A DNA stretch of 64,000 nt from Mytilus trossulus (Eukaryota): NCBI RefSeq assembly GCF_036588685.1, contig NC_086378.1, positions 65,968,001-66,032,000 on the forward strand, given 5' to 3'. The position numbers and the translations under genes are program-made. The number at the start of each line of letters is the position of its first letter. Position 1 is the first letter of the stretch. The notes beneath the pieces are model-generated. The model saw only the letters and a list, made by a program, of their open reading frames with translations, had not been told where the DNA came from and did no database searches. This document shows, one piece after another, positions 4,036 to 32,800 of this stretch.

Positions 4036-4077
4036 TCATCTGATGGGTCGTTTGTAGACGAAACACGGGTCTGGCGT
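4036..4077 (+). ncRNA. Degenerate type I hammerhead ribozyme relic (retrozyme family)
   Basis: CTGATGG-GTC-GTTTGTA-GAC-GAAAC-ACGG-GTC-TGGCGT has the same layout as 15125-15168, but the core (CUGAUGG) and the palindromic stem III are mutated. Confidence 0.55.
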
Positions 4078-4340
4078 ACAAAACTATTAGCCTGGTATAT
4101 TTGGTGAGTGTAAGCACAGTCAAATCAACAGACGTGAATGTATTGTCAAAAAATTAACAATAATAATATGTAATTGCTACTTGTATAAAATCGCGCAGTG
4201 AGTACAAAAATGCACATACAATCTTGTGTATCAGTTTTTAAATAGTATCACATTGTATTTGATTAACACTTAGAAATCAAATATTAAGACAGGAAAATAT
4301 TTAATACAAAAGAAATCAAGTCATTTGATTTATATAACTA

Positions 4341-4824: not shown

Positions 4825-4863
4825 ATACATGTCTAAAAATATAATTCATCATATATGGTATCT

Positions 4864-5613
4864 ATGTTCCAGACCGTATGAGTATTTGGATCGTACGCGT
4901 ACGGTCTGGACCGTATGCGTACTTTTTTTTTAAAGTACGCGTACGGTCTGATTAATATTAAGAAGTTTGTCAAGTTTATTAGATACACATGTATATAACA
5001 GATCAACATATCTTATATCTCAAATTAATATAAAAAGTTTAATAGTAATTGAAATCAAAACGTAATATTTTAACTATTTGAAAACAAAATTACACTGATT
5101 TAATCTGTTAATCTCCTGTATTTAACATGTCAGTATGTTTCAATAATTGCTGCCCATTATGCTCCTTGTAATTGAAGTTATCAGAAGAAAATATAATGTT
5201 GGAGAACAATTGTTTTAGAATATTTAGGAACTTTACAAAAAATGCATATGCATAGGAACATGCATGATCAAAACTTGTTAATGTAAAACAAATATTTGGA
5301 AGCAATTCTTTGTCACCTTGGGCCAGAGTGACAAAATAAGATTCACGGATATAAAAATATTTAATTTCAATTGTTCGCTTATTTACTGAATCCATCTAAT
5401 TGTAATAATAAGAATTTGTGTAACTAAAAATACAGATTATGATAAATATTTGTTTAAATTTAACCCATAAGATCCCAAAACATGTATGATCAGCTGGACC
5501 GTACACGTATACTCATACGGTCCGACCGTACGCATATGGTAGGACCGTACGAGTATACGTATACGGTCCGGACCGTACGCGTACGGTTCAAATACTCATA
5601 TGGTCTGGAACAT
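4864..5613. mobile_element. MITE (~750 bp) with palindrome-rich TIRs
   Basis: The left end ATGTTCCAGACCGTATGAGTATTTGGATCGTACGCGTACGGTC is the near reverse complement of the right end GACCGTACGCGTACGGTTCAAATACTCATATGGTCTGGAACAT. AT-rich non-coding interior. Confidence 0.85.
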
Positions 5614-6070
5614 CTATATAGAGTTAGTGTTCCTTGTATTATTAAATATTTAAACTTTTTCATTTGTCACGTGATTTTATTTTATTTGCCTGTATATGCA
5701 TATGTTATCAGGTTAATAGTGATTGATTGTAAAGAAATTATCGATTTCAAAGGTAAACTGTTTTAATTTTTGAAGTAAAGCTATAGCAAATAGTTGTTTA
5801 GAAGATTAATAGAATACTTTTATGAAATTGTAAAGGAAAAATATCACATTCAGTGCGTTTCAAACGCTTTTACACTTACTTCCTGGTTTACATTGAAGTT
5901 TGTTTAAAGAAACTACTTTTTTATTATTGAGTATCATATTAAGACGTCCGTTCGATTGAATCAAATTTTGCCCTATAGCACGTAATGAAATTCATAAATA
6001 CCTGACGCCTTCAATTTGGTTAACATGTCCGTTCCAAAAAAAAATATAGTATAGTGCATCGTATATTCTG

Positions 6071-7090
6071 TATATGTTCCGGACCATATGAGTATCTGGA
6101 CCATACGCGTATGGTCATGACCATATGGGTATATACTCATATAGTCCGACCATACGCGTATGGTCGGACCGTACGCGTATGGTCGGGGTAATCAACACGT
6201 TTACTTTTAAACTCTTCATTAGGTGTGACCCTTCTGATTGTTACGTCACTAAAATGTCATTTTATGTATATTAAAAAAAAATTATTTAAAAAAACAGTTT
6301 CGCACAGTTAATATTTCTTACTATTTGTAAGTACAATTATAAAAAGATGCCAAAATTAAATGAACATATTGTACAAGGAATTTTATTGTTTAAAGTAGGT
6401 GACATCACCGGCAAGGATCATGATATTTTTTAAGACATTTTAAAATTAAAATATTAAAAGTGTATGTTTCTTTATTTTTTCTATTCCTTTTTTCTATACT
6501 TCTATTTAATCTAAATTATAAGACGGTAAAATAGCATTTAAGAGCCATGAAATAGCCACTGTCTTTATCTAAATTGATCTGTGAAATTCATTTTATGATA
6601 TTGGAGATCTAGAGTTTCTCAAAAACACCGTAGACACATCGGAATTGTCCGAGTCGATATCACTGCACGCAGCCAAAACAAGCAATCTCAGAAAAATGAC
6701 ATGTATGGTACCGTGTGAATTTCATTTTAAGTGTACAAAAGCATACACGAATACAATTAGCGATGAAAACTAAGATCAACTGACTGTGGCATCAATATTC
6801 AATGTTAATGTAGCTTTTGACATGTAAAATTAATACATTTTTTTGTAAACACATTTGTTTTTAAGATAAAGTTTATTGTATTATTTCTATTGTAAATTTG
6901 AAAAAATACCTATATGGTCCAAATACTCATATGGTCCGGCCCGTTCATAACCAAACGAGTATAATACTCATATGGTCCGACCATACGCGTACGGTCGGAC
7001 CATACGCGTATGGTCGGACCATATGAGTATACGCATATGGTCATGACCATACGCGTATGGTCCAAATACTCATATGGTCCGGAACATATA
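6071..7090. mobile_element. MITE (~1.0 kb), TIRs related to those of 4864-5613
   Basis: TATATGTTCCGGACCATATGAGTAT... / ...ATACTCATATGGTCCGGAACATATA. About 115-bp TIRs built from ACGCGT-centred palindromes, in a TA/TATA flanking context. Confidence 0.9.
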
Positions 7091-7280
7091 TACTGTTCCG
7101 TTAATATCAAATTGAAATACACCTTCACACTATCGGGATTTTTCATGTAGATAAATTTGACCATATTGTCCAATACATTGTTAAAGTATAAGTCAATGGG
7201 AAGAAATGACATCTTTGAAATAGAACTCATATATTGAAATACCATGATCATTATCTAATGTTTTATTTAGCAGGAATAGT

Positions 7281-8975
7281 ATGGCAGAGAGTATTGCAGT
7301 TAATTGTGAACCTTGTGGGTATGATGGTTTATCAAAGTCTGCTCATTTATGGTGTAATGACTGTGGAGAAGGCTTCTGTGAAGAATGTGTCAAAGACCAT
7401 AAAAGGACAAAATTACTACGATCCCACCACTTGATTTCAATAACTGACTACATGAACAACACAGAGCTGGTCAATGATGACAACTGTGAGAGTCACAAAG
7501 AGCCATTTGAATTTTTCTGCTCACAACATGACTCAATACTTTGCCTAAAATGTTTCCAAGACCATCACAGTAATTGCAAAATATCTAAGCTGTCAGAAGT
7601 TACAAAAGGATCCAAAACTTCTACTGCACTAGCAGATCTTGAAAACGAGATTCAAAGTACGAGTCAAAACTTTGATGAATGTCAAGAGAAGGAAGACAAA
7701 TATACTACTGATTTGAAAGACCAAGAACAAAGTATCCGAGATGAAGTTATTGATATACGTCGCAAAATAAACAACCACTTAGACCAGTTACAGAAAACTC
7801 TTCTAAGAGATCTTGGTTTGAAATATAACAATTGCTCTACAAATGTAACCGAGTATTTTTCTGCTGTTAAGGTAAAAAATGCCGACATAAAAGCGCTACA
7901 CATTCGTATTTCTAACATGAAGAAGTATGCATCTGAGAAACAAGTCTTCATTGGAATACGGCAAATAGGAAATCTATTTAATAAACATAAACAAGACATT
8001 GAGAAAAACTTACAGAGAGAGACAAAGTTCGATTTAGAATTAACAACGAATGATGTTGAAAAGTCTTTACTTTCAGACCTCAAATCATTTGGTGATATTG
8101 TCGTCCGCGAAAGTTCTGACACGTTTAAGTTCGTCGATCGTTCAAAGAAACAAGCACAACTCAACATTCTGAAACATGACTCAATCGATAGAATCAATCT
8201 GCATCTTCATCAATCGATAGAGATAACACGTCTACCAGGTCAGGCAATGTCTCTGACTCCTTGTGTTATTCTTCCTACAAAGCAGCTTGCATTTGCTGAT
8301 GAAATGTATAACAGACTCGTATTTTATAACGGCGACGGGAGTTTCAGTGGTAAGATTGAAGTCGGTGAAATACTTGATCTTACGCCTATTGATAGTAATC
8401 ACATAGCTGTTCTTGTCGATGGACATATTAAGATAGTGGATATCAATACAAAGAAGATAGAAAGGACTATTAATGAATGCAATGAAGCTGAATGGGGAAT
8501 ATACTATGGAAACGGAAAGCTGTACGTTGCGGGGGAAAGACGCATAAAGATGATTTATTTGGATGGAACTGGTTTGCAATATGTTCCTGTAAAATTGGAT
8601 GGGGTTTATAATGTAGCAGTACACAATGATCAGATATTTTGTGTAAGCTTGAATACTGAAACTATTTATGCTATTGACCATGCTGGTAATCAATTATGGA
8701 CATTTCATGACAATCGTTTACATAGTCAAACAATCTTTAGGTATTGTGTTTCTACTTCATTAGATGTGGATAAGCATGGTAACGTTTTCATTGTTCTACC
8801 AGACTATGATCAGGTTCTAGTAGTATCTAGTGACGGAAAACATCACCGTGATATTCTGGACAAATCAAATAATCTTAATGGTCCAAACGGGATTTCTTAT
8901 TGTCGAGAAACTGACCAACTGTTAGTTTGTAACATAAGCAACGAAGTTGCGTCAATTTATGACAACATAATTTGA
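7281..8975 (+). CDS. RING-less TRIM-like protein: B-box1, B-box2, coiled coil, C-terminal NHL-like beta-propeller (564 aa, single coding exon)
   Basis: B-box1 CEPC..CNDC.EGFCEECVKDH..H; B-box2 CESH..FFCSQHDSILCLKCFQDHH..C; heptad region ~aa 115-250; propeller motifs LDVDKHGNVFI and NGPNGISY. Splice acceptor TTTTATTTAGCAG just upstream of the ATG. Confidence 0.92.
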   Translation: MAESIAVNCEPCGYDGLSKSAHLWCNDCGEGFCEECVKDHKRTKLLRSHHLISITDYMNNTELVNDDNCESHKEPFEFFCSQHDSILCLKCFQDHHSNCKISKLSEVTKGSKTSTALADLENEIQSTSQNFDECQEKEDKYTTDLKDQEQSIRDEVIDIRRKINNHLDQLQKTLLRDLGLKYNNCSTNVTEYFSAVKVKNADIKALHIRISNMKKYASEKQVFIGIRQIGNLFNKHKQDIEKNLQRETKFDLELTTNDVEKSLLSDLKSFGDIVVRESSDTFKFVDRSKKQAQLNILKHDSIDRINLHLHQSIEITRLPGQAMSLTPCVILPTKQLAFADEMYNRLVFYNGDGSFSGKIEVGEILDLTPIDSNHIAVLVDGHIKIVDINTKKIERTINECNEAEWGIYYGNGKLYVAGERRIKMIYLDGTGLQYVPVKLDGVYNVAVHNDQIFCVSLNTETIYAIDHAGNQLWTFHDNRLHSQTIFRYCVSTSLDVDKHGNVFIVLPDYDQVLVVSSDGKHHRDILDKSNNLNGPNGISYCRETDQLLVCNISNEVASIYDNII

Positions 8976-10548
8976 TTGCATTTAAAGTGATTACATCTAT
9001 TTATGTAATCTTTTGTTATCGTCACAGTCAACTGCAACAATCTGTAGGGACACAATTGTTTTTGAGTCTACCGCAAATTCATGTTATGAAATATCTAAGT
9101 GCAAATTTCTGGACAAAAAATACTTTATACGACTTCCTCTCGTATCATTTAAACAGAATGATTTGTATTTTAAATTATTAACCATACATGTAAGGGAATT
9201 TTCTTAAATTTAGAAAGTTTTTTTTTAGTTCCTTATTTAGTTTAGGGTAAAAGGCCATGAGACAGCAATCCTACAATAAGAATAACAAAAAATAGTGGAA
9301 GGGAAATATAGTCCACAACACTACACAATTGTAATTAAAACTTGTCAATTAAAAAAAACCCATCAGAACAATTAACTTTTAAAATAAGACATAACATTAT
9401 AAATGCTATGGGTTATGACACACACCAACGTTGTTCATTTGGATTTCATTCTAAGAGATATGGTACGTGAAGGAAAAAGATACCCAATCAGCCTTACCTT
9501 TATAAATTCATTTTTTTCCCAATAAAATAGTTGACTGTAATGTGAAGATGTTCTTACAGACACAAATGTAAAAACAGCAAAATATAATGTTTTATTACAG
9601 TATAAGAGGTATACGAGAGAGAATACTTTATATGTAGAAAAAAATACAACAATAAATATTTGAGATAAGAATTTACTTTAATGTAACAAATGAATATTCA
9701 AACAAATCCAATAATTTTACATTTGTACCTACGAAATTTGAGAAGATGTTTCGAACTGATTTAGTTAGGACGTTATTTTATTTAACTTGATTATAGGTAA
9801 TACAGGAGGCAAATTGACTCATGTTATTTTGTGGTTTAGGTTGTAAGTAGCTGTGTATTTGGAAATAAAGCAAGTCAAATTAATCAGTCATATGTTTTAT
9901 AATTTTTTTTTATTTTCAAACAAATCTTTGGATATTTTCCAAATAAACTGGCCAAAGAGAGACAATTTTAATCACATCTAATCCAGCTTATTTGAAAAAC
10001 GCATTAATTCATTTCTTGTCAGTATAATTTTATTACACCAATACAAAAGGACCTGGAAGGTTAAAATTAACAGACTTATAACCTTTTCTACATAATTGAA
10101 AACGCATTTGCATTTTTAGAAGTATAAAATATGAATATGTGTAATGTCATGCATCCCAAAATTTTCGATTCAAACTGAAAAATAAGGCTTGTATTTATTT
10201 CCTATCAATGTTTCGTTGATGGAGTTATGATGCGTATACGGAAGATTTGTTATAGGATTATACACCGTGTAGAACGCCACATACGGAGTGCCAGCTATGT
10301 TTGACACGGGTTTACAATTTCGAAGCGAAGTAAGTAAGTATCAAAATTTCTTTTTTTAGAATTCTTAGTACCATATAATGTATTGCACGAAAGAAACGGA
10401 AACCCAATCTATTACCTGCATGCAGAAGCAGTCGTTTTCAGTGCTCTGTTTCCTCAAACACCTCTCCCTAGTTTTCAATGTTGCAAATGTTGAGGCTTCA
10501 TATGCAAATTTCTGGACAAAAAATACTTTATTCGACTTCTTTTTGTCC

Positions 10549-10693
10549 GTTTCTGTGTGTGTTGCGCTTCGGTGTTGTGTCATTGTTCTCCTTATATTTA
10601 ATGCATTTCCCTCGGTTTTGTTTGTTACCCCGATTTTGTTTTTTGTCCATGGATTTATGAGTTTTGAACATCGTATACTACTATTGCCTTTAT
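10549..10693 (-). repeat. Interspersed repeat fragment inserted into the left TIR
   Basis: Absent from the right TIR and from the TIR fragment at 9100-9159. Same family as 1297-1570. Confidence 0.8.
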
Positions 10694-11116
10694 TCCTCTC
10701 GTATCATTTAAATAGAATTGAATTCCTATCATGGAATTTAACCAAGTACCAACTTCTTACTTAGAATTAATTGGTTTTAAACTAGTTTTTCATCAAAATA
10801 TAAAGTGTCGCTCGGGATGTCAGATTTTGCGTCCCAAGGGGTACAGGCTTTATCTGATACTTTTTAGTTCAAACACATCTATTTTATTGTGATAACACAT
10901 TACAAACTGAAGGTACTTAATTCCAGACATGGTATCGGGAAACAAGCATGATTTCTTTGATACGAGGTGTTATAGGTTATGCCAAGAGCCCGCCAAACGC
11001 CAGAAATTGGGTCTGCAGGTGACAATTGGCGTTATCGAAAGTTGTGTTTGTGATTAGTGGATGACAGGCGCAATTGTTTCAGCTAACGGAATAAAATTAA
11101 CGGTACCAATTTTCTT

Positions 11117-11160
11117 GCGCCAGATGCGCATTTCGACAATACATGTCTCTTCAGTGATGC
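11117..11160 (-). ncRNA. Type I hammerhead ribozyme, second variant (CUGAAGA core, AUC cleavage triplet)
   Basis: Minus strand GCATCA-CTGAAGA-GAC-ATGTATT-GTC-GAAA-TGCGCA-TC-TGGCGC. Stem II and the palindromic stem III show compensatory changes relative to 15125-15168. Confidence 0.8.
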
Positions 11161-11379
11161 TCGTGGTCAAAATATTTTGAACTTGTGGGAAATGGCCTTT
11201 CTTGTATAAACTCGTTTCTCTCTAGTTCGAGTGATATATTTGGAACACAATCACAGTATTTGAATGAACGCACAGTAGACATCTGGTATCAAGGAAACCA
11301 TGTCAGCCTCATAGAACATAATACAATGAGTCAACGTTAAAACCAAGATACCTAAAGCAGAGGTCAGAATTTGGGATAT

Positions 11380-11610
11380 CAAGGTCCATGGCGATGAAGT
11401 CTGATAGTATCTTTTGGCTTTGAACTGGAAAAATAGTTCCTGCGTCTTGGGAATCGACCATTCCGCGTTCACACAAGTTTTCTGTAATGTGTCCAATACG
11501 TTTTGGTCCTTCCATAAAATATAAAAATTTACCATGAAAAAAATCTGTAGCCAGTTTTCCAAAACCTCGAATTTGTATTCTTCTTGACATATATCTGAAC
11601 GCCTTCAGGC
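11380..11610 (-). pseudogene. Degenerate coding fragment inside the TIR element (possible transposase remnant)
   Basis: Follows an acceptor-like TTTTTCTAG. Removing one base from the 7-nt run at 11537-11543 gives RFWKTGYRFFHGKFLYFMEGPKRIGHITENLCERG. Family not identified. Confidence 0.45.
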
Positions 11611-13985
11611 TAGAAAAAAAGAAAAATGCATAAAGGATATTCCTCTTCTTTTACCAATTACATAAAAGATAGAAAATCAGCAGCCAGATTAAGTTTTTAA
11701 AGATTTTGAATCTCTGTTAAGGAATTGTTAAGAATAGAAGTGTCATTGTCTTCATGTATCCTTGAAGCTGTATTGTCATTCTGTGTTAAAGATGCCGCTG
11801 AATGTTTCATTGGAGAGGGTTATCGAGTTCGTTTTTGAATGAGTGCTTTTTGCGGCATGCACGAGAGATTTTGAGAGGAACTGTGTGATGAACTTTGATG
11901 GAGTTTGACTGTTGGTGGTTTCTGGCAAATCTTTATGGAGGTATTGTCTGTGATTCTCCTCCATGTTTCGGTGCATTGCGCCACAGCCTTGACTTTGTCC
12001 GACCATGATGGTAACTGAAAAGGAAAAGAAATCATTTTCCAGCTTCAAAACAAAATATTTGTAGTAATTTTTTACTTTTTATGAAATAAAAAGCACATGT
12101 CTTATAACACTAAAAAAGGCAAAATGAAGTACCTTCAGTATGTAATGTGTTATAACAATAAAGTGGAAATATTTGAACTAAAAAGTATCAGATAAAGACC
12201 GATTTATATGCAAATTTATTCAATTTTCTATTCAAAGCCCCTACCCCTTGAGACGCAAAATCTGACACCCCGAGCGAAAATTTATATTTTGATGAAAAAC
12301 AAGTTTAAAACCAATTAATTTTTAGTAAGAAGTTGGTACTTGGTAAAATTACATGATATAAATTAAATTCTATTTAAATGATCCGGGAGGTAGTCGTATA
12401 AAGTATTTTTTTTATCAAGAAATTTGCATATGAAGCCTCAAAATCTGCAACACGGAAATCTAGGGAGAGGTATTTGAGGAAACAGAGCACTGAAAACGAC
12501 TGCTTCTGCTTGCAGGAAATAAATTATGTTCCGTTTCTTCCGTGCAATACATTATATGGTACTAAGAATTCTAAAAAAAACCTTTTCTTCCGTGCAATAC
12601 ATTATATGGTACTAAGAATTCTAAAAAAAAACAATTTTGGTACTTGAACTTACTTTGATAGTCTTTCTCCGCTTCGAAATTGCCATACCCTGTCAAACAC
12701 TCTGCAGGTTGCGTTCTACACGGTGTTTTAAGTGATTAAATTAAACTCATTTCTTCAAATATTGTACAGAACACTGGTGGTTTTCGTGGAATTTCTATTT
12801 CACAGTTGATCTTGGATTTGCACCTTTTCTCGGTACCGCAAACCCGTCTCATTTCATCGATTAGAACATTATGACGGGAGCAAAATGCGGCGATAAAACT
12901 ACCTACTACGCCGTAGCATTGGATTTCATTTAAGTTCTTGGTTTGATTCGTTTTGTATAATTTTTATAACGGAACGTCTTGTTATGTGTTTGTCTGTTCG
13001 TCGTGTTTATATGTGGGTATGGTGTCGTCAGTTTTTATTGAACGTTAGATGTTCGAATTGTCTCCTTTGTATTTTTCTCTTTCTATAAACGCTATGTCAA
13101 TACTTTCTCAAAATTAACTGAAATCTTTTATTTCTACAATAAATCTACAAAAAGTAATACTATTACCTTAAAGAAATCACCCAAAAAGATATACTGAAAG
13201 ACACTTAGAACAGAAAAAACTTGATAAGAATGCAGTCAATTACATTGTATTAAAACACACAAAGTGACACACAAAAAACCCACACACATGATATATTTTG
13301 AAAAGAAACACAAAAATGGACACTCGTATCACAGAAACATGTGAAAAAAGTATATCATGTGGAAATGATTTTTTTCTAGTTTTCCTGGACTTACCTATTA
13401 CAGAAATTTTCTCGCTGTTCTTGCAGCTGTTAATATTTATGTCTAAAACTGAGCCAATAGTTCTCAGTGCTTATTACTGTAAACCACAACTAATTAGGTT
13501 ATGTTTTACCAATTATATTACAGGTTTTGTATGCCCCATGACAGTGAAATCATTCTTAATAAAATCGAAATCAGCTTGGACTTTAGTAGACACGAAGGAC
13601 TTAAATCTATTTGAAGGCATTGCGTATTTTCTTTTTTACTGTGAATGGAAATGTTAATAACATTTATTTGTCTAGTAAAATTAAACAATTAGAATGATCA
13701 AGACAGGCCCCAGTGTGATCTTATTAGTGAGTTAATGGTACCATAAGTGAACAACTTTATTATTAATGATCGATAAATACCTTAATCAGACGGACCATCA
13801 AATTTAACCAATTCGTGGCCTCAAAAGTTTAAATACTTATTTCAACTTCTGTCATTATATGGTTCAAATGTATATACAGTTGTTCTTCGACAATAATGTT
13901 AAAGATTTAAATCTATAATTAAAATATACATATCCACAAAAAAATAAATGATAATATCAAAGCAAGACGAATCATACAGATACTT

Positions 13986-14068: not shown

Positions 14069-17000
14069 ATGTTATATATTTTTTTAGGATGGTTATTTCT
14101 ATTTCATTTAGGTATGTATACAGGTTTTAAGTGATTTTTTCTGTGTATTGTAAGTGAAGGAGGTTAGGGAAAGACCATTTCATTTTCTTAGTAGAAAGAG
14201 GGAGACAAGACATGAACAAGTGGATATCATGGGCCTATTCAGAACTAAAACGACATAATCTTGCCTAGAAAGTATACGTATCAATATTCTGAAAAATTAT
14301 AATAGTAGGACATTATTGTGCATAAGTGTGAAAAGGAATAAGCCGTCATAACAACAGATGAAAATGCACACTTCGCCCAAAAAACGTCTCATGTTTTCGG
14401 CGAGAAGAAAAACACTTATCATCGCCTTAGTGTATTCACGGTGATGTATAGTAAAAATATAAGAACTTCAATTAAACTAATAAAAAATAAACAAGATCTA
14501 TAAAAGAAGCATCTGATTAACAATACTTTTCCTAATGATAATACAAATTTGTTTGTTTATTTTAGTTAGTAGATAGAAATAGGAAGATGTGGTGTGATAG
14601 TTAGTGCAGGACATGACGGCCTTTAAGATTTTTACTTTTGGTTGCTGTCTCATTTTAACTTACTGCTTCTTTTGTCCATAGCACAGTCATTGTAATTAAA
14701 TAAAAAAAAATCAGTTTGCGGGTTTGTACAGATGTGGTAGATACGTCTGTGTGAATATTAAGTAAAGGGAAGGTATTGTTAGAATACTGTCTCATTGATT
14801 TAGTCTAGCTTTATTTATTTGATAAAAAGGAAAATAATCTTAAGTCGAATTAGAAAGCAATAAAAGAAGGCCACATCTTTGGCAACTAGTTTGGCATTTA
14901 TAGACATTAAAAGAAGGTTAACTGTAAAATCCTTAGTGTTTCGAAAAATTCAAAGTTTTGTAAACAGGAAATTTAAAAAAAAATTACCACATTATTGATA
15001 TTCATGTCAACCCCAATGTGTTGACTACTGGGCTAGTGATACCCTCGGGGACGAAACGTCCACTAGCAGTGGCATCGACCCAGTGGTGTAAAAGTTATCA
15101 AAGGTACCAGGATTATAATTTAGTACAGCAGACGCGCGTTTCGTCTACATGAGACTCATCAGTGACGCTCATATCAAAATATTTATAAAGCCAAATAAGT
15201 AAAAAGTTGGATAGCATTGAGGACCCAAAAGTTCCAAAAAGTTGTGCCAAATACGGCTAAGTTAATCTATGCCTGGGATAAGAAAATCCTTAGTGTTTCG
15301 AAAAATTCAAAGTTTTGTAAACAGGAAATTTGAAAAAATGACCACAATATTGATATTCCTGTCAACACTGGAGTGTTGACTACTGGGCTGGTGATACCCG
15401 CGGGGACGAAACGTCCACCAGCAGTGGCATCAACCCAGTGGTGTAAAAGTTATCAAAGGTACCATGATTATAATTTAGTACGCCAGACGCGCGTTTCGTC
15501 TACATAAGACTCATCAGCGATGCCCATATCAAAATATTTATAAAGCCAAATAAGTAAAAAGTTGGAGAGCATAATTGATAGAAAGTGATGAAAAAGATTA
15601 ACCAATTTTGAAGAATTTATTTAATATTTATAAAAAAGAAAAGACAAGAGACATTGAATACCAATTGAAAAATTTACCGACTTGAGTTAATATATACACA
15701 TGTGTTGATATTTGATTTCCTTTGCATTTCATTGAAGTTAGCTTACACATTTCAGGTAGTACAGGTGTGAAGGCAGCCTCTTCAACTGCTCAACAAGATG
15801 TCGATTATGTGTAAGTTACTTATAAAAATACCAAATGAGAAAGACTATCTAAAAGTTCCCAATTTAAGTCATTTTTAATCACGTGTTAAATAATTAAACT
15901 TCAAAACATGAGACATGCAAGTGATTGTATAGTAGTTCAATAAAAAAATGTTTTTCAAATTGTCCAGTGAATTTGTATATAAAATTGGCTACCTTAATAA
16001 TGTTTCTACCGCTATTGATATCCAAACTTTATTCAGTATATATATAATTTATGTAAGCGGTTATAATCAAGACAATTCTCAAATATCTTTCTTTCTATTT
16101 TCGTCCAAACGCACCATTAAGCAACATCTTATGACATGATAACATGTTGTTAATAATACATTATATCACTTACATTTACATCAAGGTAATAATAAATCTA
16201 ATTGTCAGGACCTATTTTAAAAGCGGAAATACACTGAAGCTTGAAAACATGTCGTGGATAAGGACAGAAATTATGCCTTGTAAAGTATCTTTAATATGCA
16301 GAGAGCGTCCGACTCTTCGTATTCGAGAAATAGGATTTTAGGTCTTAATTTAGTCCGGACGTAATTGCGTATTTAAACATCTGGCACATCCTTTCCATAA
16401 GCATTGGTTTAATCAGCAATCGGGTAAGAAAATTCCAGGACTGTCTTAATTTTTATACCTCCGAAAAACCGAGTCAATATCAAGGGATAACATATGATTT
16501 ATTATGTATAAAAAAAAAAAATTTAGTTAAATTAATTGGAAGGTATGGTTTCATATTGACCATGTGTGATGCGAATCGAGTTATTGGAAACATATTGTAA
16601 TGGACAACAGGAAGGCGATTAGAGTTCATACTATCCCTTTGCACAAAAAGGCGTCTGGGGACTTGTTAACCTTGTATTAAGTGGAATAGAATAAATTTAA
16701 ACAAAACACATGAATATCTTTTGTTTTTAGATTTGTATATGTGACAAAGATTGTTATTAACAGACTCGCAAAATACATTCAACTATCAATAATTACATCT
16801 GGCATAATGCCTGCATGATACGTCATGATCTTTTTAGTGTATTATCTGATAACTTAAAGGGTGATTGCATATAGATATACATACACGTCAAACGAAAGAA
16901 GTACTATTGGCAATACTTACTTTTAATGAATTTAAATATTATCTTGATTACACAGTCAAGATTTAGTCTGTTAATTACCTTGCTCTTCAATGTTACATAT

Positions 17001-20000
17001 GTTTTTTGCTTATAATAATTGAATGTGATTATATTTTTATTCATTTCACTGTGTAATTCTGTTTCTTGAATATTCTTTTTGAGAATGTAGTCAGTATTGT
17101 TTTGTTTAGTGATTAAGATTATAACACAATGTATCCTTAATTTTGACATTTACCTATCAAGTCTATTTATTTTATTTACAAATTGTTGACAATTTAATAG
17201 AATCTTATACGACTGCCAAACAAGTGAGAGATTTAGTTAGCCATTAAACGAGGTTTAAGGTAGATAAGGTGTCTTTCTCTCTCTTTGATTTGGAAATATC
17301 ATAAAGTAAGTTCTAGATCTTTATTAGAATGTGCAAATTTTTAGAGTAGTAGGTAATTCATGCGTAAGAACTTCCCCTTTGATATAGAAAATGACATGTT
17401 CTTATGGTTGTATTTTACAAAAAAACAGAAAACTTTTCTTTGATCAATTTCCCCCCCCCCCCCCCCACTTTTCCACATAAGGAAAGGCAACTCAAATGCA
17501 AGGGCAGATAATTCAGATTAAGGTTCTTTTTAAAACAGAATGTGTTAGGAATTTACCTATTTTATCAGCAAGAAAACGGGTCCGGTGACCCCATTGTTTC
17601 TTTTTCTTAACTGAAAACATACTATTAAAGCAATCTTCTCATATGTTATCTCCAAATTCTATGGTGTAGATTACGCGTTATTGCAGAAAATTGGGCTTTC
17701 AATGCATAATCTATACAACATTTGTCAATTTTGATCACCGTATATCGTAAAAGACAAATTCGTTGTAATATTGTATTTAAAAAGCATGATATAAACTACT
17801 TTTTTTGTAAATTATTAAAATTTCTATGGATTATAATTTAGACACCCCTTCTACCTTAATCCGTCTCTTTCTACATCAGAGATTGCCTGTATACATTAAA
17901 ACAAATATAGCAGTTGTTACCAATTTGTTTGATGAATTCAGCTTTTGATTTTGTCATTTGATTAGGGTCTCAATTTCTATACCTCCGAAAAACCGAGTCA
18001 ATAGCAAGGGATAAGAAATGTTTGGTTCTGTATAAATAAAAATAAAATTGAGTTAAATTAATTGGAAAGTATGGTTTCATATTGACCATGTGTGATGCGA
18101 ATCGAGTTATTGAAAGCATATTGTAATGGACACAGGAAGGCGATAAGAGTTCATACTAGCCCTGTGCACAAAAAGGCGTCTGTGGACTTGTTAACCTTGT
18201 ATTAAGTAGAATAGAATAAATTTAAACAAAACACATGTATATCTTTTGATTTTAGATTTGTATATGTGACAAAAGATTGTAATAACCAGACTCGCAAAAT
18301 ACATTCAACTATCAATAATTACATCTGGCATAATGCCTGTATGATACGTCATGATCTTTTTAGTGTATTATCTGATAACGTAAAGGGTGATTGCATTCCG
18401 TAAAATAAATTATTTAAATTTTTAAATTTGTCAATTTGTCAAACGAGGTTATACTAGATATGCATACATGTCAAACGAAGGAAGTAATATTGGCAATACT
18501 TACTTTAATGAATTTAAATATAATCTTGATTACACAGTCAAGATTTAGTCTGTTAATTACCTTGCTCTTCAATGTTACATATGTTTTTTGCTTATAATAA
18601 TTGAATGTGATTACATTTTTATTCATTTCACTGTGTAATTTGTTTTTCATGAATATTCTTTTTGAGAATGTAGTCAGTATTGTTTTCTTTAGTGATTAAG
18701 ATTAAAACACAATGTGCCCTTAATTTTGACATTTTTACCTATCAAGTCTGTTTATTTTATTCACAAATTGTTGTCAATTTAATAGAATCTTATACGACTG
18801 TCAAACTAGTGAGAGGTTTAGTTAGCCAATAAACGAGGTTTTAGGTAGATAAGGTGTCTTCCTCTATCTTTGATTTGGAAATACCACAAAGCAAGTTCTA
18901 GATCTTTAATAGAATGTGCAAATTTTTAGAGTAGTAGGTAATTCATGTGTAAGATTTTCCCCTTTGATATATAAAATGACATGTTCTTATGGTTGTATTT
19001 TACAAAAAAACAGAAAACTTTTGTTTGATCAATTTTTTTCCCAACTTTGCCACATCAGGGGAGGCAACTCAAATGCAAAGGCAAATAATTCAGATTAAGG
19101 TACTAATTATAACAGAATGTGTTAGGAATTTACCTATTTTATCAGCAAGAAAACGGGTCCGGTGACCCCATTGTTTCTTTTTCTTAACTGAAAACATACT
19201 ATTAAAGCAATCTTCTCATATGTTATCTCAAAATTCTATGGTGTAGATTACGCGTTATTGCAGAAAATTGGGTTTTCAATGCATAATCTATACAACATTT
19301 GTCAATTTCGATCACCGTATATCGTAATAGACCCTTGCGTTGTATTATTGTATTTAAAAGCATGATATAAACTACGTTTTTGCAAATTATTAAAATTTCT
19401 ATGGATTATAATTTAGACACCCCATCTACCTTAATCCGTCTTTTTCTACATCAGAGATTGCCTGTATACGTTAAAAAAAATGGCAGTTGTTTCCCATTTG
19501 TTTGATGAGTTCAGCTTTTGATTTTGTCATTTGATTAGGGTCTTTCCGATATGAACGTTCCTCGGAGTTCGATCTTTTTGTTATATTACTTTTCTTCTTA
19601 TCCAATGTACATGTATCAAGTATTTGTATTGTAAATCCTAGCATGTATCAGAAAAATACAAAACGATGTAATTTGTCTTTAAAATATCAAATAGCTGTAT
19701 CTTATGTTGTACTAAACACATCTGAAGTGTATGACGTAGTATAAAGTTCTTAACCCAAATAAATAAGATATAATGAATAAAGCATGCGAAATTGGAAAAA
19801 AAAATACAAAATATTTATTTAGGCCCGTCTTGGATTCAGTTGTTCGAGTTGATTACAATTTTGTTTCACAAACCACAAAGGTTTCATTTCACAAGTTGCG
19901 AACTTATACTTTGAGCTTAAATGTGGCTGTTTTTACTGCACATTATTCGTTTATAAAGAAAACTAATAAGGATGTCCTTAAAATTATCTTTGTTTCATTG

Positions 20001-22390
20001 TTTATTACAATAACATTAAAAACTATTGTCCACAACATATTTTGATAACAAAATAAATATAGTGTATAAGGCTTTCTAAAAGTTGTGTTCTTCTTAAAAA
20101 GAGCGACATATGGTATGTTATTCGTGTAATATTTTGTAGATATTGAAATAAGTTGTTATGTTTTAAGATTTAAATTATTTTACTCTTTATTCCTCATTTT
20201 TCTTGTTTATTTTTTTTGCTGATCAAATTTTACCAATACAATATGAATAGTTAAAAATATCTTCCACAGAACAATTGATCAGAAGTTTTGTTTCAGAAAT
20301 GCGCGTGTAGATACTTTACATGACGACTTCTTTATTTTTTTTTTAAAGTGAATCAACCATACTGGTATTTATCCCTTTTACTATTGTATTAGATCAGAAA
20401 TTTTAATTGTCTATACAAGAAGTGGTAAGCATTTTTAGAAATTATTGATACAAGGCATTCATCTCTTTGAAAGATTTTGAAGAGGGATTTTTATTTTTCA
20501 GGGTTACAATTATTATTGCCTCCATAGCAGGTGGAATGGTTCTCATGGTGATTGTTATTTTAATTGTACGATGTGTATGTTTGAAGTGTAAAAAGACACC
20601 TGTCCGAAATATACGAGCACGTGGTCCGCCATCATGTACGTATTTTCAGAATTGCCGCAAAAATGTATTTATCTACTTTTACTTATTAAATGATTTCATT
20701 CGTATAATTCGCATGTTTGACAAAAGGGACAAGAACTAATACTAATATCCAAACAATTGAAATTGCAGGAAGGATAATGTGTTCAAATAAAACTAAATTG
20801 AAATATACAATCCAAACAATAAAGGCATCGCATCATTTGCTTGCAAGTATTCCTTTGTGTATTTTGAACAACGCCATGGGAAAATACGAAAAACAACTAA
20901 AGGACAAACAACAATACACATAATCTAAATAAGAAAACTTAAGACTGAGCGTTAACAATCCCACTATAACTGGGGTGATATCATGTGCTCTGGAAAGGTA
21001 ATTAGATCCTGCTCCATATGGTATCGTATAGATTTTTATGTAAATAAAAACACGTTTATAAGTCGTATTTGGTAGGCTTCATTCGAGGACAAACAGGACT
21101 GAGAAGTAAAGACTGATAAAACATAAATGTTGTCATCTGAAATATTCTATAACGATCATCCAATTCGTGATAGCGTCCGTAAAGTTTTGGAAGTGATGAT
21201 TTTAATTCTTCGCTTGAAATTGTTGGTTAACTAGCAAATGTTCAATACTATTGACAGAGAAAATATACTTAGAGTGTATGTTCTATAAAAGATCTTATGG
21301 TGGGCGAGATGATAATTTTAAAATTAAATTCGTCTCGTTTGACATAGATTCTGATAATTAATTAGGTGACCGTGTATGTACAATTCGAGGTATACGTTTG
21401 GAAATGAGGCAGAGGAAGCCGTGCCTGTTGGTTTGCTCTCTAAAATACACCTGTATGCTATGTTAGAATTTACTTTACATATGCAATATCTGTGTAAATT
21501 TTAGTCTAACTCAACGCCAAGCATTCTCATATCAAATATGATCGCTTCGACAAAAAAGTTACTTTAACAACGTCTCATAAAAAAAGCAAAACGCAAATAA
21601 ATCATCTAGTAGAAAGCAGTAGCTTAAAAATAAAAAGTCTACACATCAAACAAACGGAATCCATACATTTTTGTTAGAAAACACACATTACAAAGTTATT
21701 ATTATTACAAAAAAAGTATATAGCACAATACTGCAATCGTGGCTTATCCATTTATGTTAAATTCTTAGTATAACATGAAAGGATATATGTTGCTTTTCGT
21801 TTCATGTACAATGTGTTTTTTGAATAATTTTACAAACACTTTATCGTTTTTTCCATCTATGGAGTAAAATCATACGAAAAGCAGAGGCAAAAGTAAAAGT
21901 AAAAGATACAACAATCAATCCTTTTAAGTAAAGATAATAAAAATAGACAAAAAGCTGAAAACAACAATTTAATGCAACACTATAAAAACTGTTGTACATA
22001 TCCGTTTGAAAAGTAATTATTAAATAGAAAAGATGTGGTATGATTGCCAATGAGACAACTCTCTATAAGAGACCAAATGAGACAGAAATTAACAACTATA
22101 GGTCAAAGTACAGCCTTCAACAATCCGCAAAGCCCATACCACATAGTCATCTATAAAAGGCCCAAAAATGATAATGTAAAACAATTCAAACGAGAAAGCT
22201 AACGGTCTAATTTATGTACACAAAATGAACACGGTAATGTTAATCTTATTTATACATTACAGATGACGACACCAGACGTCCTTACAGACTTCCTGATCCA
22301 CCGGCGTATTCACCTCGAAACTATAACTATCCATCTCATCCGCCACCAGCATACGAAACACATATATCTCTTCCGGGAGTAACGGAATAG
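14069..22390 (+). CDS. Small type-I membrane protein A with two PPAY motifs (119 aa, 4 exons)
   Basis: Exons 14069-14111, 15756-15810, 20502-20635, 22263-22390 have GT-AG borders and consistent phases (1,2,1). Protein: MLYIFLGWLFLFHLGSTGVKA-ASSTAQQDVDYV-VTIIIASIAGGMVLMVIVILIV-RCVCLKCKKTPVRNIRARGPPSYDDTRRPYRLPDPPAYSPRNYNYPSHPPPAYETHISLPGVTE. All exons are conserved in the paralog. Confidence 0.85.
15125..15168 (-). ncRNA. Type I hammerhead ribozyme (minimal palindromic stem III)
   Basis: GCGTCA-CTGATGA-GTC-TCATGTA-GAC-GAAA-CGCGCG-TC-TGCTGT. Predicted GUC cleavage between 15131 and 15130. Confidence 0.85.
15480..15523 (-). ncRNA. Type I hammerhead ribozyme (second tandem copy)
   Basis: GCATCG-CTGATGA-GTC-TTATGTA-GAC-GAAA-CGCGCG-TC-TGGCGT. 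Predicted cleavage between 15486 and 15485. Confidence 0.85.
17259..17855. mobile_element. TTAA-target MITE (Kolobok-type GG...CC ends)
   Basis: TIRs GGTAGATAAGGTGTCT / AGACACCCCTTCTACC, TTAA on both sides. Absent from the paralog at ~34485. Confidence 0.82.
18844..19430. mobile_element. Second copy of the TTAA MITE (copied by the tandem duplication)
   Basis: Same TIRs and same flanks as 17259-17855. Confidence 0.8.
22030..22230 (+). repeat. Interspersed repeat starting AAGATGTGGTATGATTGCCAATGAGACAACTCTC
   Basis: A longer copy is at 56811-57480, with fragments at ~14583 and ~58452. Confidence 0.7.
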
Positions 22391-23203
22391 TCGATACAGT
22401 AACTTATTAACACAATGTTGTCGTTGATTACAGTTTACAGAGACATTTCCATGTTGGTTAAGTCTTAATAGAACATTCAGTTGCATTGAAGTAACGTACT
22501 AGAAATTGTAAACTCTCTGCATATTTTTGTTTGTTGTCATTAAAAAAACCCAAAGAATTTAGAAAAACTAATACAATGTCTATGTACAGATGAAAAGCAC
22601 TACAAAAAATGTCATTCGATACTGATTACAAACAGAAAAAAGACCGTATAGAATTTGTTTCTAAATCAGAAATTGCATATACCATGTCAGGAATATGACA
22701 GTTGTTATACTATCGTTTGATATATTTGAGATTTTGATTTTGTCATTTAATAACAGACTTTCTGTTTAGAATTTTCCTCGGAATTCGGTATTTTTGTGAT
22801 TTTTTTTTTTTTTGGCGAAAAGATACACGTTCTTCCGTTATTCTTTATATAATTACAAATAACACTTTACTTGTCTTTTCCGATGTGAAATATATAAATA
22901 AAAAAACGTAAAACGATTAATTTTTTATCAAAAATTCAAAGACATAATTTTTAACTTACATTTAGTTGTGTATGAAATATTGCAACAGTTTATACTTAAT
23001 TATTTCAAACATAAATCACTACTGAAAAACTATTAACATTGTCATAACCATTATCTAAAGAAACAGCAGTTGCTTTGTCTTTGAAATTGTATTGTTAGTT
23101 TAAAAAACTAAATAAAATGATAACATTGTTTTCCCTTATCATATCTGTCCAACAGATATGTAAAATGATGTCAGGATATAAAGTCAATCATTAAAAATAA
23201 CAC

Positions 23204-23300
23204 TTATATTATAATTCGCCAACTCAAACGAATATAAATTATTTAATAAATAAAACAACACATAAATAGGATAAGTGTGCCTACAGCTGTAGCAGCCTTT
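23204..23300 (-). repeat. Split direct repeat B2 (3' terminus)
   Basis: Matches 23798-23894; identical over 23212-23300. Confidence 0.92.
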
Positions 23301-23529
23301 AATATTACATTACATTCAATTTCATTCTCAAAACTAAAGTCCTTCACTTTAAATTCAGGCACACTACCATCAGTCCAATCATACAATAGCACAGTTATAT
23401 ACAGTAACAGTAACACAATCAAAAACTATCTACAAAAGAGGAAAAATTCATATTAATATAATGTACTAATGCATATACTCCTATTAACGATAACCATCTC
23501 ATAAAAGGGGTGGGTGGGTGGGTAAACAT

Positions 23530-23894
23530 AATAACGAATGCTGCTACGTCGTACTATAGGCAAACTTCGAATAACTTAATTTTCTCAAGCTACCCCCTTA
23601 AGTAATACTTAATCATGCTTTTCACGAAAATCATGAGGGCATATACCCGTAAAACCGGCAGTACGGGTATATGCCATCCAATCAAATAGAACGTAAACAC
23701 ACACCATGTGCTTGATATAAACACACACACGTGTTTATAGTAAACAATCACTTGACCGTTACAACGTCATGTGACTTAATACCTTTAATAAATATATTTA
23801 TATTCTAATTCGCCAACTCAAACGAATATAAATTATTTAATAAATAAAACAACACATAAATAGGATAAGTGTGCCTACAGCTGTAGCAGCCTTT
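23530..23894 (-). repeat. Internal B1-A2 repeat junction
   Basis: B1 (23798-23894) directly abuts A2 (23530-23797), reproducing the expected circle junction of the element ends. Confidence 0.92.
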
Positions 23895-23984
23895 CGAAAG
23901 ACAAAGAAAGCAAAAAATGCAAGTAGATGTGAGATGTGAACATAGAGTGATACATATACAATGTATAAAGTATATTTATGAAAA

Positions 23985-25001
23985 TTATATTCCCAAACTT
24001 TTAGACACTGTCAGTTTTTCTTTTATATTTTCTCTTACATAGCCATCTTTGGCTTTATCTGAAGCCCATCTACCATGCTTCTTGAATAATCTATCCTGAA
24101 TGCCAGCTGATGCAGCTGCAGTAGCTCCACCTGATCTCAAGCTATGTAATCCAAATTTGGACTTATCTAAACCGATAGATTCAAGAGCTGATAATATAAT
24201 TTCTCTTACTCTAGTATATGATAAAGGTTTAAGACCTCTCAGTTTATAAGACTTAGATTTTTTACATAAATACATTGATCTAAATATATAATCTGAAGAT
24301 AAAGCGTCAATATTAGATAATAATAAATATTTCTCCAACATACTAACAGGACATGTTTGTGTATCTGTTCTAGCAATTAAAACCTGTGTGCCTTCTCTAT
24401 AATGATCAGTTTTGCTTTTCGTTATGAGCAAAGAGACATGTGAATCACTAAATTTTATATCAGATCTTTTTAAATTTACCATTTCAGAAAACCTTAAGAA
24501 CCCTGCATAGCTTATAAGACACATACAACAAATTCTAATTTCTATAAGATTGTTACATTCTTGACCATATTTAATAACAATTTTCTTTAAAATATCTGGT
24601 GTAATTGGTTCTTTTTTTATTTACAATAGCATGTCCGATCTTTCTATGAGCTCCTTCTTTAACCGATATACACAACTGTGAATAACACGGGTTTGGATAG
24701 CCTGCTAGTTTATGAGCCCAGCTTATGGAATAATATGCTTCTTCAACCTTAGCATACGAATTAAATGTCTTTGACAGGTGTATTAAGTACAATGAAACAT
24801 AAAAATCTGAAGCTGGTAAAGGTTTAACATTTAAATAGTTATTACACCACTTACAGAAATTGTTAAATGCATATGAATATTTTCTTTTGGTATTCTCGGC
24901 CTTCGAACGCAGACAGAACTCAGGTAGGCAATTAGATAAAGATGTCAAATCTTGGTCGACTGGCTTAGGCAAGGATTTCCATATTCCACATGAAAAAATA
25001 T
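23985..25001 (-). CDS. Tyrosine recombinase of the retrotransposon (interrupted by a 1-nt frameshift in an A7 run)
   Basis: N-terminal core-binding part (RSKAENTKRKY..F..WC) and catalytic part (GFLRFSE, SKTD, HSLRSGGAT, HGRW.S...Y). Deleting one base of 24612-24618 restores NKKEPITPDILKKIVIKYGQECNNLIEIRICCMCLISYAGFLR. Confidence 0.9.
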
Positions 25002-25213
25002 CTGAAAAACGTGCATATGAAATAGAAATATAATCTACTATACAACAAGCTTACAATATAATTAAATGACCTTGCCATATTTATTTTTCATACTGGCCAT
25101 GTCAATGAGACCTTGCCTATTAAATTTGGCCTTGTCATCAACAAACGACCTTGCCAATAAATTTGGCCTTGTCTTTACTATGCGACCTTGCTCAACAGCC
25201 TTGTCGTCAATTC

Positions 25214-27964: not shown

Positions 27965-27998
27965 GGTCGGAATCTAGAAGTTTCTCGGAGTCAGACAT
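27228..27998 (-). CDS. gag: Gag-like ORF1 with CCHC zinc knuckle
   Basis: First ATG at 27998. RNKLIRIADKSPAGWKTVREYESDDLASDSEDEKRI segment and CYNCNQLGHWRTQC knuckle. Confidence 0.9.
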   Translation of the reverse strand: MSDSEKLLDSDHESLPAGTSVHSLRDGISAHNTGNNDLVDTFSLFKTYLDGKIATLHKDLAVGNENFATKLKQEVSVKLKGEGNQIQFIFNCEIMADLVKLQKRIPDEDAACLKLVSGAILKVKKRNKLIRIADKSPAGWKTVREYESDDLASDSEDEKRIRSAETRAIRSIKEKKRPHPYRTATATASAPSAPMPNQHNARQNNYQQPPFRTGRRREPSSQDICYNCNQLGHWRTQCPLLFSTKPGVSGTTRQQN

Positions 27999-28003
27999 AC
28001 CAC

Positions 28004-29829: not shown

Positions 29830-32800
29830 AAAGTTTACTGTGATTTGAAGATGCTGTTACAGATGAAAACGTAAAAACGAAAACAATCTAAGTTTCAAGT
29901 CCAATGTTGGCCCAATCGTTGGATATTTTCCCGATAAACTGGCCAAAGAGGGACAATTCTTATCACATCAAAACCAGTTTATTGGAAAGACGCATTGATT
30001 CATTTCTTGTCAGTATTTATTGACACACAAAAAAGATCTGGAAGATCAAAATAAGCAGACCTGTAACCTTTCCTATAAATTATAGATATAATGTGTAAGT
30101 CATGCATTCTTAACTTTTCGATTAAAACTTGAAAATTGAGGCTTGCATTTATTCTCTATCAAGGTTTCGTTGAAAGAGATTTGTAATGCGTACACTAAAT
30201 ATTTGTAAGAGGTTTATAAATGATTAAATTAAACTCATTTCTTCAAATTTTGTACGGAACCCTGTTGATTGTTGTGGAAATTCTGTTTCACCAAGGATTT
30301 GCACCATTTCTCGGTACCACAAAACCGACTTATTTCCTGGATTGAAACATTATGAGGGGCTCAACATATGCGGCGATGGAACTGCCTACGTTGTCGTAAC
30401 ATCTAAGTGATTGGTTGAATTCGTTTAGTATAATCTTTTTTGTGAAACGCTTTGATTTATGTGTTTGTTTGTTCGTCGTGTTTATATTTAGTATAGTGTC
30501 GTCAGTTTTCGTTGAACGTAAGATTTTCGAATTGTTTGTATCTTCTCTCTTTCTATAAACGCTGTGCCAATACTATCTGTCAATACTATCGCCAGACCAA
30601 ATCATGTATTTCAATAATCCCACAAAAACAATATTAGTACCTTAAATAAATCAATCAAAAAGATATACTGGTAGACACTAAAATATAAAAAAATGTGATA
30701 AGACAACAGCCAATAACATTATATTAAAAACACACAAAGAGAAAAATAGTCCCCAAACGAGATATATTTCGAGAATAAACACAGAAAAAGACACTGTTAT
30801 TACAGAAACGTGTGTTCAAAGTAAAGGTTATTTTGATCATGTGGGAATGCTGTTTTTTCTGGTTTTTTGGGACTTTCACTCTGGCGGAAAGTTCTTGCAG
30901 CTGTTAATATTTATTTTTAAAACTCAGTCAATAGTTCTCAGTGCTTATTACTGTAAACCACAACTAATTAGGTTATGTTTTACCAATTATATTACAGTTT
31001 GTGTATGCCTCATGACAGTATTTATTAACTTTTAACGGAAATGTTAATTACATTTACCTGTTTAGTAAAATGAAACAATTAGATTAAACAAGACAGGCCC
31101 CAGTGTGATCTTATGAAGTTCTGTTATTAGTTTATGGTACCATAAGTGAACAACTTTATTATTCGTGGCCTCAAAAGTTTTAATACTTATTTCAACTTCT
31201 GTCATTATATGGTTCAAATGTATATACAGCTGTTCTTCGACAATACTGTTAAAGATTTAAGTTTATAATTAAAATATACGTATCCACAAAAAATAAAATG
31301 ATAATATCAAAGCAAGAAGATTCATACAGACACTTTCTAAATATATGACATTTGTAAAGAAGTCGTGATTCAATATGGAAAACTCTAAATAACTGGAACC
31401 TATATTACATGTTGTAATATGGTACATTTTTTTTAGGATGGTTATTTCTATTTCATGTAGGTATGTATAATGTAGTTTATGATTTGTCTGTTTATTTTGA
31501 GTATCGAAGTTAAGGGAAGACCATTTGATTTTGGTTGGAAAGAGGGGGACAATGCATGAACAAGAGGATATCATGGCCTGTTCAGAAGTAACACAATATG
31601 CTCTTTCCTTGACAGTATATATTTGAATATTCGGAATCTATTGTGTATCGTCATGACAATAGGTGAAAAAGCACATATCGCCCGCTAGAAAATATAATGT
31701 CCTCCTGTACATACGAAAAGAAAAAAATGTCATCGCCCTAGTCTGTTTACGGTGAAGTATAGTGATGATATAAGATCAGCAATAAAAAGAAAACGATATT
31801 TTAAAAGGGAACAACTGCTGAACAATAGTTTTCCGTCTTATTTCGAATACTAGTACTTATGATAATACACAAATTTTAGTTATTCTAGTTAGATGACAAA
31901 CTCTTTTATATTGATTTCGAGTCTAAACTCTTAGATTGACACTTCAAAAAGTTTGACTACAAAGTTTAAACTGTTCTTTGAGAGTCAGTGCAATCGATTT
32001 TGATTTTGTAGTAATTCGGTGTTCAAGTAGGATTTCCATAGGGTTCAAGTGATCGTTCATCGTCAATTGCAGGACATGACGACCTTTTACTTTTGTTTCC
32101 TTTCTCGTTGCATTTTATTTTACTGCTCCTTTCGTCCATAGCACAGTAATCATTATAGTTAAATAAACATAATTTTGCGGGTTTGTACAGATTTGGTAGA
32201 TACATGTGCATCTGTTTTAATATGAGGTAGAGGGTATATATTGTTATAGTGCTGTCTCATTGATTAAGTTTAGCTTTCTTGAATTTGAAAAATAATTTTA
32301 CGCCGAATAAGTAACTAATAAAAGAAACATCTTTCGCATCTAGTTTGGCATTTATAGACACCAAAGAGGGTTTACTGTAATTGATAGAAAGGGATAGGAA
32401 AAAAAACCAACTGAATTTGAAGACCATTTTCAATATTTATATAAAAAAAAAAAACGAACAGAGAAGTTGAGTGACAATTGAATAATTTACCGACTTGAGT
32501 TATAGTTTACATAAATATATACTGTGTTGATATTGATCCCCTTTGCATGTTATTAAAGTTAGTTAACACACGTATTTGTATTATTTCAGGTAGTAAATGT
32601 GTAGAGGCAGCCTTTTCAAATGCTCAACACGATGTTGATTACGTGTTAGTTGTTTGAGCAAATACCAAATGAGAAAACCATATAAAAATTAGCGGTTTTG
32701 TCATTTTTTTTACGAGTAAAAGTAACTAGACTTCAAAATGTAGTCTATAAGTCACCAAATCGGACCTTCAATTTGACATCTTTTTATTTGAATAAATAAA

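Follow-up and report, generated by a model that had tools for sequence, protein, structure and literature searches.

A decaying retrozyme copy in a mussel intron, and a stem-loop that its family shares with Naiad elements

The window analysed here is a stretch of 64,000 nucleotides of the Mytilus trossulus genome (NC_086378.1, positions 65,968,001 to 66,032,000). It includes a plus-strand gene that is predicted to encode a small single-pass membrane protein, and an intron of this gene holds a 647-bp insertion in antisense orientation (Table 1). Contigs from runs that we guess to be RNA leave exon 1 at position 14114 and continue with exon-2 sequence in 4/4 aligned runs, and one run has 30 letters identical to exon 2 of the window. 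The contigs are about 90% alike, and are therefore evidence for an intron in the host gene or an orthologue, not for expression of this allele. None of these contigs aligns to the insertion itself. The antisense intronic position proposed in the initial annotation is supported by splicing in every aligned run.

The region has been tandemly duplicated, and a paralog of 72-79% identity lies ~17.4 kb downstream. On that paralog, contigs connect the first exon to the third through 70 intervening letters. Both paralogs (14069-20635 and 31419-35726, plus strand) are predicted to encode a Cys- and basic-rich juxtamembrane stretch, and their Pfam matches are weak and below the cut-off (Orthoreo_P10, E 0.009; EphA2_TM, E 0.09). 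Exon 1 of the downstream paralog is out of frame in a T-run, reflecting either a pseudogene or an assembly error. The second intron of the host gene contains a further tandem duplication of 1.5 kb and ~93% identity (16443-19543).

Near position 32378 the paralog lacks the 647 bp, as expected of the clean insertion described previously. The accompanying statement that there is no target-site duplication (TSD) needs qualification. The junction is indeed clean, but TAA flanks the element on both sides and occurs once in the empty site. The TAA at the left junction allows two readings, host duplication and AA microhomology shared with the element, and because its letters are possibly element-derived, TSDs of 0 to 3 bp are indistinguishable. 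Among 47 rows of the family, the longest TSD-like matches range from 0 to 8 bp and are no better than those of 400 random pairings, so that an absent TSD is ordinary for this family.

Table 1. Features of the insertion, its host gene and the empty site (window coordinates)
Feature	Position	Strand	Remarks
Host exon 1, coding part	14069..14111	+	predicted start and signal-peptide-like stretch; contigs cover from ~13950
Host intron holding the insertion	14112..15755	+	GT..AG
Host exon 2	15756..15810	+	
Further host exon	20502-20635	+	
Whole insertion	14926..15572	-	647 bp, ~1.8 units of a 355-bp non-LTR retrozyme
Left junction (element 3' end)	14925..14927	+	TAA; +203 from predicted cut, atypical
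Right junction (element 5' end)	15572..15574	+	second TAA
Hammerhead B (upstream in the RNA)	15480..15523	-	5' arm 15523-15518, mutated; core 15517-15511; palindrome 15494-15487; predicted cut between 15486 and 15485; 3' arm 15485-15480, family norm
Hammerhead A (downstream in the RNA)	15125..15168	-	5' arm 15168-15163, family norm; core 15162-15156; palindrome 15139-15132; predicted cut between 15131 and 15130; 3' arm 15130-15125, mutated
Unit between predicted cuts	15131..15485	-	355 nt; both undamaged arms inside, both damaged arms outside
Bulged stem-loop, copy B	15382..15439	-	shared with Naiad 5' start; usual family 3' end ~6 nt before, near 15446
Bulged stem-loop, copy A	15027..15084	-	same stem-loop
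Empty site in tandem paralog	32378..32380	+	single TAA; flanks ~75% identical

In the insertion, the minus strand encodes a pair of type I hammerheads with a spacing of 355 nt, as the initial annotation had recognized, and each includes CUGAUGA, a 4-bp stem II, GAAA, the palindrome ACGCGCGU and GUC. The Rfam model Hammerhead_1 matches both copies under its gathering score (E 1.3e-4 and 4.2e-4), and at the gathering threshold Rfam has no match in the window. These hammerheads had been called minimal, a term that does not fit them: with a 6-bp stem I and a 2-bp stem III closed by a tetraloop, they are canonical in the terms of PMC4209133. Minimal hammerheads of Penelope-like elements (PLEs) lack helix III, have a short helix I and are located in the pLTR of an RT-encoding PLE, whereas here helix III has 2 bp and a tetraloop, helix I has 6 bp, and no RT frame lies beside the insertion among the ORFs of the window. 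The insertion itself has a GC content of 38.5% and contains no ORF of at least 70 amino acids.

Exact copies of the hammerhead core number 18,660 in the 1.3-Gb genome, compared with 0 in a reversed control, so the motif is not due to chance. The family is dispersed and multi-copy, with long arrays on C1. As judged by eye, the hammerhead (arms, core and palindrome) and the stem-loop downstream of it are identical to those of a published 375-nt retrozyme of Mytilus galloprovincialis (PMC4918200, Additional file 11). The family also shares with the Mytilus retrozyme of PMC7229834 tandem, low-GC units of 350-390 bp and two hammerhead subfamilies whose stems covary. We took non-LTR retrozymes to be non-coding units of 150-450 bp with a GC content below 50%, without PBS or PPT and with TSDs, if any, longer than 4 bp. 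The retrozyme reading of the initial annotation is well founded, given a type I hammerhead in each unit, a non-coding, low-GC tandem unit of 355 bp, an abundant family and the by-eye match to a published Mytilus element. The insertion is a new copy of an already published family, and the locus is unremarkable, a worn copy in a family of tens of thousands. It differs from the published unit in belonging to a 355-bp subfamily, in ~4% private changes per unit and in an off-register 3' end.

The biochemistry of this family has been studied previously. A cloned genomic repeat of the mussel retrozyme cleaves at ~0.1 per min, its circles are abundant in tissues, RtcB circularizes ~30% in vitro, and the RNAs comprise full-unit circles and linear forms of ~350-400 nt (PMC7229834). 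Invertebrate retrozyme hammerheads are reported to cleave mostly as monomers (PMC7761336), as is the mussel motif (PMC7229834). The available part of the latter description reports neither a fixed 3' end nor a motif shared with Naiads.

Further retrozyme fragments are present in the window at 4040-4103, 11090-11177, 38028-38263, 44591-44764 and 50303-51292. The fragment at 11090-11177 is of the second subfamily, in which stems II and III covary and the palindrome differs. Elsewhere, telomere-like GGGTTA repeats precede each of three retrozyme pieces spaced at ~1055 bp (L091:4491-7066; G000:C1, ~162-165 kb).

The two units of the insertion differ in 23/292 columns of their alignment. Relative to 67-68 distinct genomic copies, they carry rare letters at 14/292 and 11/290 positions, only one of which is common to both. 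Each unit thus appears to have gathered ~4% independent changes after insertion, including two in one stem I arm of each. The stem I arms have changed more than the background (4/24 versus 3.8%, P ~0.01 in a post hoc comparison), an excess for which plain neutral decay accounts only through CpG mutability.

Copies of the family tend to end at a particular place. In the sense of the hammerhead, 3' ends concentrate ~40 nt past the cut and 5' ends show scatter, in a set that mixes selected and random loci. Across 60 stretches of 10 kb taken at even spacing, together with the window, 15/43 of the 3' ends fall within -7 to +1 of the stem-loop and 28/43 within -21 to +1, and 5' ends range from -330 to +221. 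The 15/43 ends that lie beyond -21 to +1, about a third, do so partly because subfamilies diverge from the reference sequences. Within the 60 stretches alone, 12/17 cores stop before the stem-loop (a pattern gave 14, two of which continue by eye). The preference is also seen in selected young insertions (the 47 rows less 7 matches to Naiads), 34/40 of which end within -13 to 0. Since most copies include the hammerhead upstream of their 3' end, the template must presumably span the cut, as a circle or an uncut multimer would. The copy studied here ends at +203 rather than at ~+40, that is, ~160 nt beyond the usual end and directly after another U-run. A minority of young copies have such off-register 3' ends.

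The stem-loop that marks the usual end is ~58 nt long, and it also opens two hammerhead-free families of Naiads, where it stands directly before the ORF and its ATG. A search of the genome for GIY-YIG domains yielded 149 matches, and one family with the endonuclease before the RT, which we call Naiad-1, has a version of the stem-loop. Its 1056-amino-acid protein, encoded intact at L185:1544-4711, has GIY-YIG at residues 183-273 and RT motifs that were read from the sequence, with no RVT_1 match. The second family, Naiad-2, was found by a metagenome pattern scan whose 120 loci were mostly chance matches; 4/120 resembled the element, and two of these led to Naiad-2 and to a possible third family. 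Naiad-2 has an intact frame of 995 amino acids at L403:1406-4390, with GIY-YIG at 130-167 and RVT_1 at 640-849, both below the cut-off, in a tandem unit of 3370 nt, and its protein is 55.5% identical to that of Naiad-1. Both families were assigned by motifs and domain order, namely GIY-YIG N-terminal to the RT, CxC, GxKF/Y, DKA and tandem units. These features, together with abundant truncated 3' ends and the absence of a hammerhead, are those of the Naiad clade (PMC8557442). No hammerhead-like core occurs in the 4 Naiad units scanned; other PLE families were sampled in part.

Several comparisons support the resemblance. The retrozyme and the Naiad-2 unit have a single segment in common, of 82 nt at 81.7% identity (E 9e-16); unlike Naiads, the retrozyme has no ORF. 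A covariance model built from retrozymes only gives 74-83 bits for Naiad-2 and 20-25 bits for Naiad-1. In local alignments, 0/200 shuffles reach the score of Naiad-1, compared with 11 to 45 of 200 for three control PLEs with a C-terminal endonuclease. Within the two helices, 99% of alignment cells pair (25-55% in slid controls) and 4/12 base pairs show compensatory changes, which come from few lineages, as 3 of the 4 separate Naiad-1 from the rest.

Naiad copies also tend to end just before this structure. Ends within -7 to -2 of the stem-loop account for 21/48 in Naiad-1, and ends within -8 to -2 for 22/48 in Naiad-2, although 7 of these latter rows are matches to the retrozyme stem-loop. Genome-wide, ~9,218 exact 3'-end motifs of Naiad-1 and ~10,784 of Naiad-2 were found, of which 43 and 101, respectively, continue into the stem-loop. 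Approximately 99% therefore stop in both families, a figure that is approximate because the exact-match patterns are not strictly nested. The end of a Naiad may be just the head-to-tail joint of its own unit.

Other interpretations of these sequences were considered and rejected. The plus strand of the stem-loop as a second hammerhead fails because its GAAA-like loop is not conserved across subfamilies, and a UGGU/ACCA pseudoknot is broken in Naiad-2 and some retrozyme subfamilies. A twister, twister-sister or HDV-like fold has no Rfam support at E values up to 10. A 29-bp retrozyme match upstream of some Naiad-1 copies is not shared ancestry, but a short retrozyme 3' end inserted into a Naiad repeat, with an empty copy alongside. 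Apart from these, one metagenome contig (L318:787-855) carries the stem-loop between a 3' end of a third kind and an ATG, and possibly represents a third Naiad family. Many truncated Naiad-1 3' ends occur in the window itself (for example 3432-3506, 19433-19593, 22658-22810, 34333-34643 and 50615-50769), several of them stopping at the family end point, and repeat family D11 (35324, 47460, 50043, 51779) resembles Naiad-2 3' ends.

We consider it likely that the insertion represents 1.8 decaying units of the known mussel retrozyme, inert in its antisense intronic position, and that the family is copied by a Naiad reverse transcriptase. Tandem units would be transcribed, cut by their hammerheads and circularized, as reported for the family (with RtcB in vitro). 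The shared stem-loop and the offset of the ends suggest that a Naiad protein might bind the stem-loop and prime just 5' of it on nicked, AT-rich DNA. With circular or uncut multimeric RNA as its template, the RT could then proceed back through the hammerhead, and this would give 5'-truncated and tandem copies. The copy studied here probably began off-register at another U-run, with 2-3 nt of microhomology. On balance, we also favour a broader reading in which mussel retrozymes are parasites of hammerhead-free Naiads: they would have captured a 5' stem-loop that positions a telomerase-like RT ~6 nt upstream, and gained a circle-making hammerhead.

Related systems offer partial precedents. Poseidon_Ac, a PLE of the anole, initiates reverse transcription in vitro at an internal, structure-linked position downstream of its hammerhead (PMC11167929). 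As in the case proposed for the retrozyme, the start is internal and past the hammerhead, genomic ends coincide with the start site, and targets are AT-rich. Poseidon_Ac differs in belonging to another clade and in using two start sites that leave a 30-40-bp tail, compared with one cluster here, and the study, in its available part, includes no non-autonomous partner (PMC11167929). A general link between retrozymes and PLEs was proposed in 2020 and is supported in Xenopus by a 2026 preprint (bioRxiv 10.64898/2026.07.22.740005). That work likewise proposes that retrozymes are PLE-derived and non-autonomous, on the basis of pLTR homology, and finds 42-44% of copies in introns. In the available part of the preprint, however, molluscs are not sampled, ends are not mapped, the matches are to pLTRs of Repbase PLEs, and Naiads are detected only in coral. 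Similarly, the description of the Naiad clade, as far as available, does not describe the 5' stem-loop and ties retrozymes to PLEs only in general (PMC8557442). The stem-loop link between Naiads and retrozymes was not found in published open-access text; relevant material may exist in the supplements of PMC7229834 and the 2026 preprint.

The stem-loop might instead be a promoter, a translation signal or an undescribed self-cleaving site that sets the RNA end, inherited from the 5' end of a Naiad, in which case the copying RT may differ. Its place immediately before the Naiad ATG would suit such a role, and ribozymes are known at the 5' ends of R2, RTE and other LINEs (PMC7761336). The absence of hammerheads from Naiads (PMC8557442, in its available part, and the 4 units scanned) makes another processing signal plausible as well. 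We nonetheless regard this explanation as unlikely. No Rfam ribozyme family matches the stem-loop at E up to 10, the compensatory pairs favour an RNA structure over a DNA promoter, and the T-runs preceding the end either lack the length or are too frequent for terminators. Moreover, the published mussel RNAs are full units of ~350-400 nt (PMC7229834), so that +40 lies within the RNA. A separate question is whether the copy studied here arose by a normal target-primed event, or by patching of a double-strand break or template copying from another array or cDNA. Both of its ends are off-register, the element overlaps by 1-2 nt at both junctions, comparison with the paralog shows no loss of host bases, and off-register 3' ends are on the rare side among young copies, all of which is compatible with patching. 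On the other hand, its 3' end directly follows a U-run in the manner of canonical ends, the family normally shows short ambiguous overlaps, and small losses could be hidden because the paralog is only ~75% identical. We hold break patching or such template copying to be possible but doubtful for this copy, and prefer off-register priming by the Naiad RT.

The initial annotation had also claimed that the two hammerhead cores complement each other as a dimer. Stem I of a double hammerhead does form across copies, so the logic of this pairing is right, as is the observation that each copy has one stem I mismatch and that the 5' arm of A (GCGUCA) pairs fully with the 3' arm of B (UGGCGU). The reciprocal hybrid between the 5' arm of B and the 3' arm of A, however, retains a U-C mismatch, and pairing thus restores only one of the two sites. 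The special dimer is also unsupported by the clean hybrid, which is simply the ordinary stem I of the family: both family-norm arms occur in one monomer 14,746 times genome-wide. The mutated arms are near-private, occurring 8 times (3' arm of A) and 2 times (5' arm of B) in the genome, and with one damaged arm per copy, one clean hybrid would be expected half the time. Newt and axolotl dimer-dependent hammerheads, and the minimal ones of PLEs, resemble these copies in a palindromic loop III that permits a double hammerhead (PMC4209133, PMC7229834). In contrast to them, the copies here combine a 2-bp stem III with a 6-bp stem I, and the mussel motif reportedly acts as a monomer (kobs ~0.1 per min; PMC7229834). 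In a dimer-dependent motif both hybrid cores should be fully paired and the monomers inactive, whereas here the reciprocal core is mismatched and monomer activity is reported for the family (PMC7229834).

Mutual rescue of two crippled hammerheads, by which this locus would give off a 355-nt monomer or circle, is in our judgement very improbable. Amphibian and PLE hammerheads are known to cleave as dimers (PMC4209133, PMC7229834), and the unit between the cuts retains both intact arms, so that a circle formed from it would carry a normal stem I if both cuts occurred. Release requires both cuts, yet the reciprocal core mispairs. In energy models, which ignore the catalytic core, the B+A double hammerhead is predicted at -18.7 kcal/mol, better than the homodimers (-12.5 and -12.7) but short of a normal pair (-24.9), and the best alternative B+A fold reaches -30.2 kcal/mol. 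The modelled probability of cross-pairing across the whole insert is 0.00-0.01, a weak indication since the normal monomer fold is also ~0 in the model. Finally, the host transcript runs antisense to the hammerheads, and the host pre-mRNA, carrying the other strand, would not self-cleave.

If copying by Naiad RT is correct, it identifies the enzyme behind the retrotransposition of an animal retrozyme, together with the RNA signal and the start site, and provides the first defined cis-acting RNA element for Naiads. According to the available part of a 2020 review, animal retrozymes lack a conserved motif that would point to an autonomous partner (PMC7761336). The shared stem-loop and the end offset make the question of the partner testable with one purified protein and one RNA.

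The window contains several additional features. A young-looking tyrosine-recombinase retrotransposon, which we take to be DIRS/PAT-like, occupies 23191-28275 on the minus strand. Its 919-amino-acid frame matches RVT_1 and, weakly, Dam; it also has a 211-amino-acid Phage_integrase frame and split direct repeats at 23527-23801/28001-28275 (99%) and 23191-23300/23785-23894 (95%). A single-exon frame of 575 amino acids at 7248-8975 (plus strand) has two B-box matches and is TRIM-like. Two elements at 4859-7093 and 10343-12637, which have long inverted ends, resemble MITEs or DNA transposons, and positions 62740-62986 consist of ~9 copies of a 27-bp minisatellite with a higher-order period of 80 bp.
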